This document shows positions 12,372 to 18,043 of a DNA stretch of 64,000 nt, piece by piece (position 1 is the stretch's first letter; every line of letters begins with the position of its first letter). The notes under the pieces are model-generated. The model was not told the origin of the DNA, ran no database searches, and saw only the letters and a list, made by a program, of their open reading frames with translations. Where the stretch lies: contig CBDAOY010000005.1 of the NCBI GenBank assembly GCA_965198225.1, positions 192,001 through 256,000 on the forward strand. The letters are read 5' to 3'. This stretch comes from Terriglobia bacterium (GTDB lineage: Bacteria > Acidobacteriota > Terriglobia > 20CM-2-55-15). A program made the translations under genes and the position numbers.

Positions 12372-13103
12372 TCAGTGCGTCATCGCGTATAGGACGATGT
12401 TGATCCCCAGCCTCAGGGCTTCGGTGGAGGGTCTCAGCGGGAACGCGGGCCGGTCGATCCACTCCCAGAAATCGCCGACGTCGTTGTTGTAGCAGATGAT
12501 CACTCCCAGATCGCCGTTGTCGCGCTCGATGCCGTAGAAGATGGCGGCGCCACCGACCGCATAAGGCGATTCGATGTACAGGCTGTCGATGTCGTAGAAC
12601 GTGCTCAGCATCGGGTGGGTGTCGTCGAGAACCACCAGATCCCGCTCCGGGAACACGCGCATCAGGTTGGCTTCCATCATCTCGAAGTGCCTTGGGCCAT
12701 CGAAGTCGTCCATCATCACCAACCCGCCCCGCTCGACATATTCCCTGAAATTCCGTACTTCCACGTCACTGAGCCACATCATGCCCGGTTCTGAAATGTA
12801 GCCGAAGGGGTACTCGAATATCTCTTCGCTGGCAATCGGAACGATCCGATACGACATCTCCTCGACATCGATGATCGTGGCTTCACTCATGATCTGGTTG
12901 AGGTGTTGTTCGGCGTCCGGGTAGTCATGGGCCCATCCGCCCCTGCCGGCGTAGGCCCATCGCGCAAAGATGAATTCGGTTTCCGCAGGTTCGTTCTGAA
13001 AGACGCGACGCGAGCGCTGGCCGAACCGGCCGTACTGTCCGAGTGCCAGGCCCGTTACCAAAGAGACGAGGATTAGAGCCAGTCCCCAGCGGATGCGCAA
13101 CAT
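12372..13103 (-). CDS. DUF4159 domain protein, exported
   Basis: WAHDYPDAE, EYPFGYISEPG, GGLVMMDDF, NNDVGDFWE and GINIVLYAMTH motifs; signal peptide from ATG 13103. Confidence 0.85.
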   Translation of the reverse strand: MLRIRWGLALILVSLVTGLALGQYGRFGQRSRRVFQNEPAETEFIFARWAYAGRGGWAHDYPDAEQHLNQIMSEATIIDVEEMSYRIVPIASEEIFEYPFGYISEPGMMWLSDVEVRNFREYVERGGLVMMDDFDGPRHFEMMEANLMRVFPERDLVVLDDTHPMLSTFYDIDSLYIESPYAVGGAAIFYGIERDNGDLGVIICYNNDVGDFWEWIDRPAFPLRPSTEALRLGINIVLYAMTH

Positions 13104-13421
13104 GACTCGATTCTTCGCCCGACTCCTGGTGATTTCAAGCAAGAACCCCCGACAAGGGCGGTGGCACGACTCCTTGACACCACCTTCGGGCCGTTCTATA
13201 AGGGCTAGCCCGAGCCGCTGCCGGATCGTTGCGACCTGATGGGAATTAGGGACATATTTCAATTCGCTCTGGAATACCCGCTCGTTGTGCTTGCTATCGT
13301 GATCGCGGTGGTGTGGCTGTACCGGGACAAGGCAGGTCGATTGCCCCGAAGGATGTTCCCGGGTACAACTTCGCGAACCAACTGAGAAGCCTCTTCTTCG
13401 GAATGTGACCAGTGAAGATGA

Positions 13422-13702
13422 GTAGGCCGTTGTCCGTAGGCCGCTATTGCGGCAGGTTACGACAGCCCGCGCTTTTCAGCTCGACTGCCGACGACGCGGT
13501 CGGAACCAAGGATGGGGCGGGATAGCTCGTTGTTCGTAGGCCGTTATGGCGGCAGGTTACGGCAACCCGCTCTGATCAGCTCGACTGCGGCTGGACGCGG
13601 CCCGCACGGGGAGCAGGGGATGATCTAGAACGGTCCGGGAGCATGAGAATCGGTTGACTACACGAACACACTCCGTCAACGGCCTACGGCCTACGGACTA
13701 CT
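13422..13702. repeat. Intergenic repeat block: ~100-bp imperfect tandem duplication plus GTAGGCC/GGCCTAC heptamer runs
   Basis: gttgtccgtaggccgctattgcggcaggttacg...tcagctcgactgc recurs about 100 bp later. The inverted heptamer run caacggcctacggcctacggactac is at ~13677-13702. Confidence 0.65.
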
Positions 13703-13706
13703 TTCT

Positions 13707-14735
13707 TCAACGCCCCAGGATCGTGGAGTCGGGGAAGAAGGACTTCCAGGCAAACCAGTAGGAAACGAACGACGGCACTTCGTCGAGCCTGGTTCCGGAG
13801 AGCGGACCGGAGATCGCACGGCCTTCGAAACCGTCCCATTCCGAACCCGTCGCCGCGTCGCGCAGGATTCTGCGACCAGCTTCGTCCCGGTTGTAGCTGA
13901 AGGAGTGGTTCCCGGACCGAAAGACCTTCCCGGTGGTTCCGTCGGGCGTGGCGACGGCAATCAGTGCGCTGCCGTCGGCGGAAACCCCCAACGCCCGGGC
14001 GCGATTCGCGTCCTCGGTCAGGACAGCGAACGGGCGGCCATCGATGTGGAAGCTCAAGACCGTGGCTTTCGGACCGATGTCATCTTGCTCGAAACTCGTC
14101 GTACCGCTCGCTCCGATGACCATGTTCTGGTGGTAGCGGCGGCGCGACGCCCGAATTCGATCCAGATCGCCCATCGGAGGTACCGACATCACGAGGGTAT
14201 CTGGATGGAGGGTGTGCCACTGTTTCCAGGTCATCAGCGAAGAGGGATACATCTCGAGTGTCTTGCCTTCCATCTCACCCTGTATCGCCTTGCCGAGCGC
14301 CTGGGCCCACCACGACTCGGTCCGACGATCGTAGAACACCACGTTCTCGCGCCACAGCACACCGGTGAAACCAAACGTGAGTTCCTCGCCGTCGACCCTT
14401 CGGACATACACGATGCCCGTGTTGCACAGCGGTCACCAGGTCGCGGTGATCGGCGTGTCGCCGATCGTGTCGTTGACGATCTCCCTGCCGTATAGCAGGA
14501 GGACCGGATACGCCGTGACGGCGTCTCCCGCCGTCACGCCGATCACGAGGTCGTCGGCTTCCATGGAACCTGCCTCACCCGCTACGACGAACGGAGGAAA
14601 ATCCAGAACCTCCATGCCATCCTTGGGAGCACCGCGGACGACTGGATCACCGTCGACGACGGCTTCTTCCCGCCATCGCTGGCCACCTTCCAGGACGGTG
14701 AACGCAAGAGTCAGCAGAAGCAGCATCCGCATCAT
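13707..14735 (-). CDS. DUF3179-family exported selenoprotein (UxxC; Sec codon TGA at 14433-14435)
   Basis: ORFs 14433-14735 and 13707-14411 are in the same frame, separated only by TGA: EIVNDTIGDTPITATW-U-PLCNTG, where the family has CPLC. A SECIS-like hairpin follows; YDRRTESWWAQ and SYWFAW motifs are present. Confidence 0.88.
14401..14419 (-). promoter_or_regulatory. Bacterial SECIS-like hairpin of the DUF3179 gene
   Basis: CGGGCAU-[CGUGU]-AUGUCCG at +14..+32 after the in-frame UGA. Confidence 0.72.
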
Positions 14736-15238
14736 TTCTCCTCCAACAGTTCTTCAATCTTCGCCAGAAGCTGCTCGCGGCTGGCCAGCCCCACGTGCTT
14801 CATAGCGACCCAGCCTCGACGGTCGAGTATGAAGGTCGTCGGCACCCCGATGATTCCTCCTATTTCTTTGAGGATCTTCTCGTTCGATAACACGATCGGA
14901 TAATTGATCTCGAGATCGCGGATGAACCTGGCGATGCCTTCGCTGTTTTCCCCGTCCAGCGTGACACCGACGACCTCGAAACCCAGATCTTCGTACTGCC
15001 GCTTGAATTCTATGAACCATGGGATTTCCACACGGCATGGCGGACACCAGGTCGCCCAGAAATTGATGAGCCGGACTTCGCCGTCGAACTGGTCGGAAGA
15101 GACGACGCTCCCCTGCGAGCTCGGGAGTTCGAATGCGGGAAACGGCTGTCCTTCCTGAGCCTGTGCCTGGACCAGCTCCGGACTCTGCAACACCGGGGCC
15201 AGCAGCAAGAGGAGCGAAACCGTGATTCTTCTGATCAT
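14732..15238 (-). CDS. TlpA/ResA-like thiol-disulfide oxidoreductase, exported
   Basis: INFWATWCPPC and GVPTTFILDR motifs; signal peptide; the stop overlaps the DUF3179 ATG (ATGA). Confidence 0.92.
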   Translation of the reverse strand: MIRRITVSLLLLLAPVLQSPELVQAQAQEGQPFPAFELPSSQGSVVSSDQFDGEVRLINFWATWCPPCRVEIPWFIEFKRQYEDLGFEVVGVTLDGENSEGIARFIRDLEINYPIVLSNEKILKEIGGIIGVPTTFILDRRGWVAMKHVGLASREQLLAKIEELLEEK

Positions 15239-15245
15239 TTCGCGA

Positions 15246-15599
15246 CTACTTGTCAGACCAGACAGCCAGTTCGTTCCCGCTCGGATCCGCAAAGTGAAAA
15301 CGTCGGCCGCCGGGAAACTCGAAGGTCTGGCGGACAATCGTTCCGCCTGATTCCCGGACTTGCGACTCTATCGCCTCGAGATCGACTGCATAGATGACCA
15401 CGAGAGGTCCGCCACCCTGGTTGGCCTCGACCCTACTGAACCCACCCCCGAGGCGGCCGTCGCTGAAGCTCGTGTAGTCCGGCCCGAAGTCCTGGAAGGC
15501 CCATCCGAAGACGCTGTGATAGAAGCTCTTGGTCGCCTCGATATCCGTCGCAGAAAATTCCACATAGTCGATCCGGCGATCCTGCTCGGATTGACTCAT
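15246..15599 (-). CDS. VOC/glyoxalase family protein
   Basis: IDYVEF...FY..VFGW.F.DFGPDY...FPGGRRFHFADPSGNELAVWS; AAGGAGG RBS. Confidence 0.92.
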   Translation of the reverse strand: MSQSEQDRRIDYVEFSATDIEATKSFYHSVFGWAFQDFGPDYTSFSDGRLGGGFSRVEANQGGGPLVVIYAVDLEAIESQVRESGGTIVRQTFEFPGGRRFHFADPSGNELAVWSDK

Positions 15600-15612
15600 C
15601 CGGCCTCCTTGC

Positions 15613-16662
15613 TTAAGGACCCTTGCGGCGCAGTTCGACCGGCGCGCGGCTGCCATCATGCCGGGAGAGCTTCACGACGAAGTCGACTGGGACTTCAGCC
15701 GGCAGGTAGCAGATCGTGTCGTCGCAGGCCTGGTACTTGAAGCTGCCGCCGATCCTGATCTCGTCTTGCCGGGCGCGCGCCGAAATCGTCACATCTTTCC
15801 GGATCCGTACCGTGTGGTGGAAAACCGGCACTCGCTCGTCGATCGCGGGGAGGTGAAGAATCTCCGCGCCGGGAAACTCGGTCTCGTGTGTGATCAGGAG
15901 CGGATCTTCGGCGATGTTGAACTCGCTCGCGGTATAGCCCTCCACTCCGGGCGCATAGATGTGCATCCTGTCGGGCAGCTCCACATCCAGGACGAGCGTA
16001 ATTCGGTTGCCCGAGCTCGCCTCATCATCGCTCGAGTACGCCGTCAGCTTGAGGTGGTCGGTCTGCACCTCGACACGCCGGGCCCCCGCAACGCCGAATT
16101 CCCGGGTCAGGATGGAATCCGCCGTGTAACGCTCCCGATGATCCTGTTCAAAATACTTGGCCTTGACGATTCCGTTTGCGTCCACGACGTAGGTGCCGGG
16201 GAACGGCACGCCATACCATTCGTGGTCTTCGGGGATGTTCGTATTCAGGATGTCGAAAGCTCCGATGATTTTCGAGTCGGGATCAGCAAGCAGCGGGTAG
16301 GTGATCCCGACGCGTTGGGCAAAGTGCCGGATCACCTCCGGGGTGTCGTAGGTGATCGCGACCAACCCCAGGCCCTGCTCTGCCAATTCATCCAGGGTGT
16401 CTTCCAGCTCCACGAGCTGGGTCTTGCAGAACGGTCACCAGTCTGCGGAACGGTTGACGTAAACCATCGCGCCGTTCGTACCCTTGATCGAATCGAAATC
16501 GACCATGCGGCCGCTCTGGTCGAGTGCCCGAAAGTCCGGGATCCTTTCGCCGACTTCGGGGCCGGTGCGGATGTTCTGATCGTACGGATCTTGCTGGCGC
16601 TGCGCGAAGGTTGGCACGGTCCACAGAAGCAGCACGAGGATGAACGGGGGAACACGTTTCAC
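15613..16662 (-). CDS. Peroxiredoxin-like (AhpC/TSA, thioredoxin-fold) selenoprotein fused to a C-terminal DsbD-alpha-like domain (UxxC; Sec codon TGA at 16435-16437)
   Basis: ORFs 16435-16725 and 15613-16413 are in frame across a single TGA: GPEVGERIPDFRALDQSG...RSADW-U-PFCKTQLVEL...YPLLADPDS...PFPGTYVVD. C-terminal YQACDDTICYLP. GTG start with GAGGAG RBS and signal peptide. Confidence 0.9.
16404..16420 (-). promoter_or_regulatory. Bacterial SECIS-like hairpin of the Prx-like gene
   Basis: CCAGCUC-[GUG]-GAGCUGG perfect stem at +15..+31 after the in-frame UGA. Confidence 0.75.
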
Positions 16663-16698
16663 AGGGTCACTCTCCTCGAATCTCAAAGGACTTGAAAC

Positions 16699-16707
16699 AT
16701 CATAGCA
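16699..16707 (-). promoter_or_regulatory. Putative extended -10 promoter of the selenoprotein operon
   Basis: TGC-TATGAT about 37 nt upstream of the GTG start, with TTGCAA further upstream (15-nt spacer). Confidence 0.4.
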
Positions 16708-16887
16708 TCGCGTGAGGTCTTGCAAAATCTATTGATGATTACGGTAAGGCAGCTGTCAGCTTTCCTCGCTCTGCTCTTCGCCTTCTGGCTGGCCTAAGCT
16801 CATGGCTGATATCCAAACGCTGATTGCTCATGGCGGTCGGCGATTGGTAACGGATGGCTAAAGAGTAGAAAAGCCTGCAGGAAAGAC

Positions 16888-16916
16888 TTGCATTCGAGTC
16901 GTATACACACTATGGT
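16888..16916 (+). promoter_or_regulatory. Putative sigma70 promoter with palindromic operator-like boxes
   Basis: TTGCAT-17 nt-TATGGT; GTATAC and GTGTACAC palindromes flank the -10. Confidence 0.5.
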
Positions 16917-16940
16917 TTGCGTGTACACCACTCATCGTGA

Positions 16941-17036
16941 AGGTTGTCCGGCGGGCACGGGACCCCAGCCCGCAAAGCTGGCAGCGTAGTCGACTTAGGT
17001 CGACTTAACTCGCCAGCCAGCCCGTCGGTCAACCTC
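16941..17036 (+). ncRNA. Candidate structured ncRNA of unknown family
   Basis: Closing stem aggttgtccggcgggc / gcccgtcggtcaacct encloses gctggc..agtcgac-ttag-gtcgact..gccagc. It lies downstream of a promoter with no credible ORF. Confidence 0.4.
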
Positions 17037-17161
17037 GTTCCATTGTGATCGCCCTTCCCAGCTTTTTCCGAGAAACGGCTCTAACTAGCATAGGACTGTG
17101 CCATCCCGGATTCTGTAACGAGGATTACACAATCTCCCCACAAGCTACCCCCCCCCCCCCA

Positions 17162-18043
17162 TTAACCGCCGGATTCGAGCCACGACCGTATTCCCTGCCC
17201 GATATCGACCGGTGAATCCTCCTGGATGAAGTGGACGCCCTTGACCGTGATTTCGCTCTGGTTTGGCCAACCCCTGCAGAAGTCCCTCTGAGCGCCGGTG
17301 AGGATCGCGCCCGGTTCCGCGTTGACGAAGAACTTGGGCACATCGGAACGGCTCAACCATTCCGCATAGTCCGCGACGATGTCGTGGACGTCAGCCGGAT
17401 CGCCGTCGATCGGAATCTGGCGCGGCCACGTCAGCGTCGGGCGCCGACCCTCCCCGGCCTCCGCAAAAGGCCTTCGGTAGACTTCCATCTCATCGTCGGT
17501 CAGCTTGCGCAGCATGGAGCCGGGTAGCACGCGTTCGACGAAGACGTTCTGTTCGAGCACCATGGTCTCGCCGGCCGGAGATCGAAAGCCTTCGAACACG
17601 CCGCGAGCCGCCTCGGGCCAATCCGACCAGTGGAGCGGTCGAACAATCGCTTCCATGTAGGCGATGGCTCGCACCGATTCCCGGTGTCGGTTCGCCCAGT
17701 CGAAGCCCAGAGCCGATCCCCAGTCGTGCACAACGAAGGCGACGCGTTCGGTGATGCCGAGTTGGTCGAACAGGGTGTCCAGATACTGTCGATGTTCGAC
17801 GAATCGGTAGCGCTCCGGGCCGCTCTGTTCGAGCTTGTCCGAATCGCCCATCCCGATCAGGTCGGGTGCAACCAGGCGCCCGAGCCCCTCCAGGTGCGGC
17901 ATGACGTCGCGCCAGAGGAAAGACGACGTGGGGTTGCCATGAAGAAAAACGATCGGGTCCCCCTCGCCGACTTCGACATACGCCATCTTGCGGCCGAGAA
18001 CCTCGATCTTCTTTTTTTGGTATCGCGCCTCGGGAGCACTCAT
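17162..18043 (-). CDS. dhaA: Haloalkane dehalogenase (DhaA/LinB-type, HLD-II)
   Basis: [16 protein letters not shown] (Asp nucleophile plus Trp), YMEA (Glu), [12 protein letters not shown] and [10 protein letters not shown] (His). Confidence 0.93.

Follow-up and report, generated by a model that had tools for sequence, protein, structure and literature searches.

Two probable exported selenoproteins, a Prx-like/DsbD-alpha fusion and a DUF3179 protein, in one gene unit of a Terriglobia bacterium

Introduction

Two of the selenoprotein families on published lists are the peroxiredoxin-like (Prx-like) thiol:disulfide oxidoreductases (PF00578, with the motif UxxC or UxxU, U being selenocysteine, Sec) and DUF3179 (PF11376, UxxC/T), both entered in Table 1 of PMC9312934 and in Table 1 of PMC13188914. 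The reviews attribute the inclusion of DUF3179 to Zhang and Gladyshev 2007 (PMC1976440), and the name DUF3179 is not used in the part of that paper available to us. A gene of each family, broken by an in-frame TGA, is present in the locus described here, a unit of four genes at positions 13707 to 16662 of a 64,000-nucleotide stretch of contig CBDAOY010000005.1 from a Terriglobia bacterium; this whole stretch is called the window. Our preferred reading, held with a probability of about 0.62, is that the unit yields two full-length exported selenoproteins and arose when two separate reductase modules of the envelope were joined, recently and in this lineage.

DUF3179 turns up in the literature in selenoprotein reviews and a table entry. 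The section on selenoprotein operons in PMC13188914 does not contain this gene combination, and in the titles and abstracts listed no description was found of a Sec-containing fusion of Prx-like and DsbD domains, nor anything on these proteins in the literature on the selenoproteome of Acidobacteria. The original prediction for this locus spoke of two hidden selenoproteins in a combination not recognised as a described system; both families are already published, as the tables of the two reviews show, and neither gene founds a new one.

The two interrupted genes

Four co-directional genes on the minus strand encode, in order, a fusion of a Prx-like and a DsbD-alpha-like domain (gene 1), a VOC protein, a TlpA/ResA-like thioredoxin and a DUF3179 protein (gene 4). 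The spacing is that originally proposed, 13 nucleotides (nt) between gene 1 and the VOC gene, 7 nt between the VOC and TlpA-like genes and an ATGA overlap between the TlpA-like and DUF3179 genes. The first and last genes are indeed single frames broken only by TGA at the first position of UxxC. The genes and the elements within them are as follows.

15613..16662, minus strand: gene 1, Prx-like + DsbD-alpha fusion, GTG at 16662 to TAA at 15613, 349 codons
16435..16437, minus strand: in-frame TGA of gene 1, SADW-U-PFC, first position of UxxC
16404..16420, minus strand: hairpin of gene 1 resembling a selenocysteine insertion sequence (SECIS), 7-bp stem, loop GUG, starting 17 nt past the U of UGA
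15694..16020, minus strand: DsbD_N (DsbD-alpha-like) domain of gene 1, PF11412 match
15246..15599, minus strand: VOC/glyoxalase-fold gene, ATG at 15599 to TAG at 15246, 117 amino acids
14732..15238, minus strand: TlpA/ResA/CcmG-like thioredoxin gene, ATG at 15238 to TGA at 14732, 168 amino acids, WCPPC at 15049-15035
13707..14735, minus strand: DUF3179 gene, ATG at 14735 to TGA at 13707, 342 codons
14433..14435, minus strand: in-frame TGA of the DUF3179 gene, TATW-U-PLC, first position of UxxC
14401..14419, minus strand: SECIS-like hairpin of the DUF3179 gene, 7-bp stem, loop CGUGU, starting 16 nt past the U of UGA

Decoding of the two TGA codons

The genome (9 contigs, 97% complete) contains the full machinery for selenocysteine on which the prediction depended. 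The tRNA-Sec scores 72.9 bits and is called SeC, with anticodon tca, by ARAGORN; selA (537.5 bits), selB (387.3 bits) and selD (372.6 bits) are present, and all four are above their curated cut-offs. The selD gene, at G000:C9:419380-420303 (L018), has one in-frame TGA of its own, so the selenophosphate synthetase is itself probably a selenoprotein in this genome.

Both families were searched for in 401 genomes of Acidobacteriota, and the residue at the TGA column was counted in the 30 best loci of each, the present locus included. For DUF3179, the column holds TGA in 27 loci and Cys in the other three; the counts for gene 1 are the same, or 26 of 29 for TGA if one locus (L097) from a genome flagged as unpublished is left out. 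Every one of the 30 loci per family thus has either TGA or Cys at the column. Among full-length database homologs, Cys stands there in all 21 aligned DUF3179 proteins and in 12 of 13 relatives of gene 1, the remaining one having Trp. In DUF3179, C101 and C104 are invariant across the query (with C written for U) and 92 full-length homologs.

If the TGAs were true stops, the genes would be pseudogenes or would be expressed as separate fragments. Gene callers do split both genes, and many database entries have the corresponding form: ~22 of the 120 best DUF3179 matches are fragments of 208-241 residues starting just past the TGA column, as expected if a TGA cuts the gene, and about half of the top Prx-DsbD_N matches are likewise fragments that start just after it. 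This explanation is nevertheless very improbable. The TGA keeps one column across sequences of 29-67% identity with the protein conserved on both sides of it, other homologs have Cys at that column, hairpins follow the TGAs and the genome has the complete Sec machinery. Sequencing error is not the cause of the split either, because contigs from three other studies, which span the whole unit with both TGAs and all three junctions and show 0-2 differences per piece, carry both TGAs unchanged; among the differences listed, none is at either TGA.

The hairpin of gene 1 is well supported by comparison. Its stem is 96.3% paired over 189 cells from 27 Sec-type orthologs, with compensatory changes in three pairs; none of 500 shuffles reached the observed pairing or covariation, and controls slid along the alignment were 12-46% paired. 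The stem of the DUF3179 hairpin reaches 95.0% pairing over 161 cells from 23 Sec-type orthologs, and a single pair (GC 18, AU 5) shows compensation. That alignment omits four Sec-type loci (L042, L043, L048 and L051) which have a different hairpin, CCACACC-GGUCU-GGUGUGG, starting closer to the UGA. Cys forms of both genes degrade the hairpin, retaining 3-5 of 7 pairs in three Prx loci and 1-5 of 7 in five DUF3179 loci.

Some of the hairpin results tell against Sec decoding. The covariation of the DUF3179 hairpin is thin, its count of compensatory pairs being not above that of shuffles, and a control slid by two columns equals its covariation score (0.179 versus 0.165), although with only 54% of cells paired. 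Folded alone, neither hairpin is stabler than shuffles (z -0.4 to +0.1). A scan of 13000-17500 against Rfam at E <=10 found no SECIS family and returned three rows at chance level.

RNA data for the locus are sparse. The RNA runs have small shares (0.08-0.09), and their sole coverage is a contig of 286 nt from a metatranscriptome library (16391-16676, identical), which spans the start of gene 1 and its TGA; such libraries can contain DNA. In metagenomes, contig depth at 90% likeness spikes 5- to 20-fold at 14991-15097 (WCPPC), 15633-15739 (Cx4C) and 16382-16488 (UxxC), so that many other members of the community evidently carry near-identical motifs at these three active-site segments. Taken together, the conserved columns, the hairpins and the machinery of the genome make it highly probable that both in-frame TGAs encode selenocysteine.

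The DUF3179 protein

Read through its TGA, the DUF3179 protein matches PF11376 with 226.2 bits over profile positions 1-292 of 292. The family was found in 146 of the 401 Acidobacteriota genomes, with TGA in most of the best matches. A second Sec-type paralog is present in the same genome (G000:C6:220573-221532; L054:6001-6960), with 48% identity and the motif W-U-P-L-C; only the C-terminal half of a TlpA-like gene lies upstream of it, the N-terminal part being out of frame or lost.

The AlphaFold2 model of the protein (93 sequences) has a predicted local distance difference test score (pLDDT) of 91.7 and a predicted TM-score of 0.88. In searches with an exhaustive aligner, residues ~231-336 align to Rieske-type domains in the 44 best rows (Z 8.5-5.0), with ~75-105 residues aligned at a root-mean-square deviation of 2.4-4.2. 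The N-terminal part, modelled alone (pLDDT 84.0), also gives Rieske-type domains in its 44 best rows (Z 8.0-4.0). When the profiles of the two halves are compared with hhalign, they align with each other over 126 columns (probability 99.8%, E 3e-28), which indicates an internal duplication. The ligands of a Rieske cluster are CxH and CxxH. In DUF3179, the U/CxxC motif occurs in the first copy only (U101-x-x-C104) and the C-terminal domain has no Cys; with no second Cys/His box, no Rieske cluster is expected. The protein thus models as two homologous Rieske-like domains in which the cluster ligands are absent.

There are arguments against this fold. No similarity to solved Rieske proteins is detectable at the sequence level, and the profile of the N-terminal domain searched against the Protein Data Bank (PDB) gave chance haemoglobin rows. 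Values of Z near 8 are, moreover, often seen in models that match nothing clearly; what carries the fold call is that the lists are uniform and that small domains are covered whole. A Pfam search of the protein at E <=0.01 gives no Rieske domain, and Foldseek with the full model finds nothing in the PDB at E <=0.001, its top rows being unrelated large proteins with TM ~0.1. No mention of a Rieske-like fold of DUF3179 was found in the literature.

The residue at the second position of the motif depends strongly on the first. It was tallied in the best match of each of 108 loci (30 of the phylum and 78 diverse ones, two duplicates having been dropped), without correction for kinship. In the 36 Sec forms, all with TGA, the +3 residue is C in 13, A in 10, T in 8, D in 4 and S in 1; in the 72 Cys forms it is C in 71 and A in 1. 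The second Cys has therefore been lost in 23 of 36 Sec forms against 1 of 72 Cys forms, and several distinct motif groups are involved. Such loss where Sec is present would be expected of a lone redox nucleophile that is resolved by an outside thiol, and we infer that the Sec in DUF3179 is catalytic rather than structural.

A thioredoxin is a candidate for the outside thiol. Fusions of DUF3179 with a thioredoxin-like domain make up six of its 120 best database matches; two Methanosarcinales loci also have such a fusion, with the thioredoxin-like domain at the N-terminus. Among 80 diverse loci, a TlpA-like profile finds a same-strand open reading frame (ORF) within 1.3 kb of DUF3179 in nine, and only three more matches in the remainder, which is roughly twice larger. 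In three of the nine, a CcdA gene sits between the TlpA-like gene and DUF3179. Same-strand strings of TlpA-like, CcdA (DsbD_TM) and DUF3179 genes are found at L137, L175 and L182, that is in two actinobacterial metagenome-assembled genomes (MAGs) and one Woesearchaeota genome.

On the other side, 71 of the 80 diverse loci have no TlpA-like neighbour within 1.3 kb, and a TlpA-like gene is beside DUF3179 in only 2 of 20 loci of the phylum. Pfam scans of neighbouring ORFs (129 and 90) show no single recurrent partner family, the neighbours being otherwise heterogeneous; the crude picking of ORFs for these scans missed at least one TlpA-like gene (L052). A complex prediction for the Cys-type TlpA and DUF3179 proteins of a same-genus genome gave no call (score 0.00 against a mark of 0.32), which is neither for nor against binding.

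Another kind of neighbour, a class I pyridine-nucleotide-disulfide oxidoreductase with Pyr_redox_2 and dimerisation domains, adjoins DUF3179 in five loci (L053, L056, L064, L134 and L187) from three phyla. Two of the five have a VTT/DedA-type membrane protein next to them as well.

DUF3179 might alternatively be a metal- or metalloid-binding chaperone or sensor, with the Sec or Cys in the cluster loop acting as a ligand and the TlpA-like protein serving only to keep it reduced. TlpA keeps copper proteins reduced. The Rieske-like fold of both domains would suit such a role, as would the oxidoreductases in the five loci just mentioned and a scatter of neighbours that includes CobW, HupE/UreJ, COX1/COX2, a Cu-oxidase_4 family protein, RcnB and an ABC-3 permease. 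Several metal-handling families are also among the selenoproteins listed in the reviews' tables (PMC9312934, PMC13188914). We consider this unlikely: no single metal-related neighbour recurs, the Rieske ligands CxH/CxxH are absent and the C-terminal domain has no Cys, and the loss of the second Cys in most Sec forms is easier to reconcile with a lone nucleophile than with a site of two thiolates.

A broader proposal is made only tentatively. DUF3179 could represent an unrecognised class of extracytoplasmic reductase, a tandem of cluster-less Rieske folds whose Sec or Cys would be recycled by a dedicated line from CcdA to a TlpA-like protein; the Sec forms would do without a resolving Cys, and in the present unit the reductase would be wired to a second selenol reductase.

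The Prx-like/DsbD-alpha fusion

Gene 1 matches AhpC-TSA (PF00578) with 95.2 bits, against a cut-off of 26, and has the motif W-U-P-F-C. Its C-terminal part matches DsbD_N (PF11412) with 30.6 bits, against a cut-off of 25, and DsbD_N matches the C-terminal domains of all 30 orthologs. The motif of this DsbD-alpha-like domain is Y-Q-A-C-x4-C-Y-x-P, and both Cys (Cx4C) are present in 35 of 35 loci. The first domain has ResA chains as its nearest solved relatives; the DsbD_N part gave no match to PDB chains in sequence and profile searches. Identification of gene 1 as a true peroxiredoxin (AhpC, BCP/PrxQ or Tpx) is not supported, as it scores 43.2 bits against a cut-off of 140 for PRK09437, the highest-scoring peroxidase model, and 29.7 against 272 for AhpC.

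Matches to the fusion, counted at E <=1e-25, were found in 50 of the 401 Acidobacteriota genomes, and the motif RSADW-U-P-[YF]-C-K-T-Q-L-V-E is nearly constant in the 30 best loci. Related arrangements also exist. A database protein of 610 residues (P0125) joins AhpC-TSA and DsbD_N to a DUF899 (PF05988) domain. In two same-genus genomes (L125 and L126, from G402 and G403), a stand-alone Prx-like gene at ~1486-1953 on the minus strand has W-U-P-F-C and no DsbD_N and lies divergently beside a Sec-type DUF3179 gene, and the genus carries further short Prx-like TGA genes.

The VOC and TlpA-like genes

The VOC protein matches Glyoxalase (PF00903) with 37.6 bits against a cut-off of 20.6. The third gene was originally named TlpA. 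It has a Redoxin domain (79.3 bits) and WCPPC, and its nearest solved relatives are thioredoxins of the DsbE/ResA/TlpA type; that part of the assignment stands. The more specific name does not, since the protein misses the NCBIfam equivalog cut-offs for TlpA (73.8 versus 230 bits), ResA (89.5 versus 170) and DsbE (60.7 versus 123), and 'TlpA' is to be read here as TlpA/ResA-like and not as a named ortholog. NCBIfam cut-offs are in fact reached by no model for any of the four genes. In a genome of the same family (G412), a TlpA-like gene at L114:3142-4028 has a TGA at the Trp of WCxxC and an interruption of ~480 nt, and is probably a pseudogene.

The products of genes 1, 3 and 4 look exported, as had been proposed for three of the four. 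Signal peptides were judged by eye: each of the three has a short charged N-terminal stretch followed by a hydrophobic one, and the VOC product has neither.

Conservation of the unit

Three other genomes of the genus (G401, G402 and G403, the last two each a single contig) were compared with the present one, together with 20 more distant DUF3179 loci of the phylum (6 kb flanks) and 29 Prx-DsbD_N loci of other genomes (1.5 kb flanks). The four-gene combination was found in none of these, which goes against the idea of a dedicated four-gene module. The named relatives of highest identity that the searches returned are Acidobacteriota MAGs (Terriglobia, Vicinamibacterales).

The genes of the unit are dispersed within the genus. 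G401 has a TlpA-like gene (61% identity) and a Sec-type DUF3179 gene (67%, TGA) that overlap at the start of the latter; its Prx-DsbD_N ortholog is on another contig with a different ORF after it, and its VOC ortholog is on a third contig. In G403, a Cys-type DUF3179 gene (54%) comes 7 nt after a TlpA-like gene (56%). A distance of 0.35 to 2 Mb separates the Prx-DsbD_N orthologs of G402 and G403 (66-67%, TGA) from the DUF3179 genes, and the VOC orthologs of these two genomes (70%) are 0.17 to 1.8 Mb from DUF3179 and ~1.5 Mb or more from the Prx gene. Across the genus the VOC orthologs, at 67-71% identity, occur in unrelated places. At the other loci compared, neither selenoprotein gene was found to have a VOC neighbour, so the suggested link to electrophile handling by the VOC protein lacks comparative support.

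Further afield, tblastn of the 20 DUF3179 loci finds a TlpA-like gene in 4, the fusion in 1 (G134) and a VOC gene in none. Around the 30 Prx-DsbD_N loci, the present one included, DUF3179 is near in 2 and a TlpA-like gene in 3.

These distributions bear on a rival to the preferred reading, in which all four genes form one pathway, a dedicated selenol relay running from CcdA through the Prx-like UxxC domain, the DsbD-alpha domain and TlpA to DUF3179. The tight coupling of the genes and the single promoter-like site upstream of them are what such a relay would lead one to expect. Of the 49 other genomes that have the fusion, 39 also have DUF3179, which over the whole sample occurs in 146 of 401; related genomes cannot, however, be counted as independent, and each of the two traits relies on the use of Sec. 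Two loci speak for the relay and against the independence of the modules. In G134, three of the four families lie within ~6.6 kb, the Prx-DsbD_N gene and an adjoining TlpA-like gene being 4-5 kb from two DUF3179 genes, and in G391 a Cys-type DUF3179 gene adjoins Prx-DsbD_N. Treating the two modules as independent could therefore make too little of a functional link. The relay is all the same improbable, given that the fusion, the VOC gene and the TlpA-DUF3179 pair are separated in each of the other three genomes of the genus, that so few of the Prx-DsbD_N loci have either partner nearby and that the VOC protein has no signal peptide.

The evidence is thus against the four-gene set being a conserved system; judged by gene order, the TlpA-DUF3179 pair appears to be the conserved unit. 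Most likely the fusion gene and the VOC gene joined this pair recently, in this lineage.

Proposed mode of action

On the preferred reading, that of two separate reductase modules brought together in one unit, reducing power would enter the envelope via the single CcdA/DsbD-type membrane protein of the genome. Within the gene 1 product, the UxxC thioredoxin-fold domain and the Cx4C DsbD-alpha-like domain may exchange electrons inside one polypeptide, by analogy with the gamma and alpha domains of DsbD, and the protein would then act on envelope substrates. DUF3179 would be an extracytoplasmic reductase made of two cluster-less Rieske-like domains, with Sec or Cys as the attacking residue, and the TlpA-like thioredoxin would separately return it to the reduced state. 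The cytoplasmic VOC gene may simply ride along, there being no demonstrable link to the rest of the unit.

Surroundings of the unit

Gene 1 is preceded by one further element.

16699..16726, minus strand: promoter-like site ~37 nt ahead of the GTG of gene 1, TTTGCA-16 nt-TATGAT, the TATGAT hexamer being preceded by TG

It is the sole such site in 13200-17300, and as a count of 1 is not above shuffles (mean 1.3), its position is the only argument for it. The sequence GAGGAG lies 9 nt before the GTG of gene 1, and AAGGAGG precedes the ATG of the VOC gene. The flanking genes, among them those for a DUF4159 protein, an alpha/beta hydrolase and a methyltransferase, are unrelated. No CcdA gene was found near the locus, in 4375-28473; the one CcdA/DsbD_TM gene of the genome is elsewhere.

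Significance

What the locus offers is a correction of annotation in two known families; it does not reveal a new system that is conserved. Gene callers halve both proteins, and databases are full of such fragments. Many Acidobacteriota appear to use selenocysteine in exported redox proteins of the thiol type. DUF3179 is widespread, and the data suggest a testable picture of it, in which a thioredoxin is the partner of a protein with a Rieske-like fold and a lone nucleophile.

Comparison with known systems

Several described systems resemble parts of the unit. E. coli DsbD and the systems that combine CcdA with a thioredoxin (ResA, CcmG, TlpA) share with gene 1 the extracytoplasmic thioredoxin-fold and DsbD-alpha-type domains and their Cys or Sec pairs, and a CcdA-type gene is present in this genome also. 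The spacing of the Cys pair in E. coli DsbD-alpha is Cx5C. Gene 1 has Cx4C instead, lacks a membrane domain in the same polypeptide, has its domains in the order thioredoxin-fold then alpha and carries Sec in place of the attacking Cys; solved DsbD-alpha chains are not matched by its sequence.

The modelled halves of DUF3179 resemble the cluster-less Rieske folds, such as that of the small subunit of assimilatory nitrite reductase (PDB 3c0d, 4aiv), to which they align with Z 7.7-8.0 over 92-98 residues and which likewise lack CxH/CxxH. DUF3179 differs in being a tandem of two such domains, in being exported and in having U/CxxC in the first of them, with no detectable sequence similarity.

The two published selenoprotein families are close relatives as well. 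Gene 1 shares with the Prx-like family the AhpC/TSA fold, Sec as the first residue of UxxC, Cys homologs and a SECIS hairpin just downstream, and adds a C-terminal DsbD-alpha-like domain, a fusion that does not appear in the review tables. Gene 4 agrees with the DUF3179 family in matching the full Pfam profile and in having Sec at the first Cys of CPLC, and nothing essential differs; to the UxxC/T given in the tables for that family, the relatives examined here add UxxA, UxxD and UxxS.

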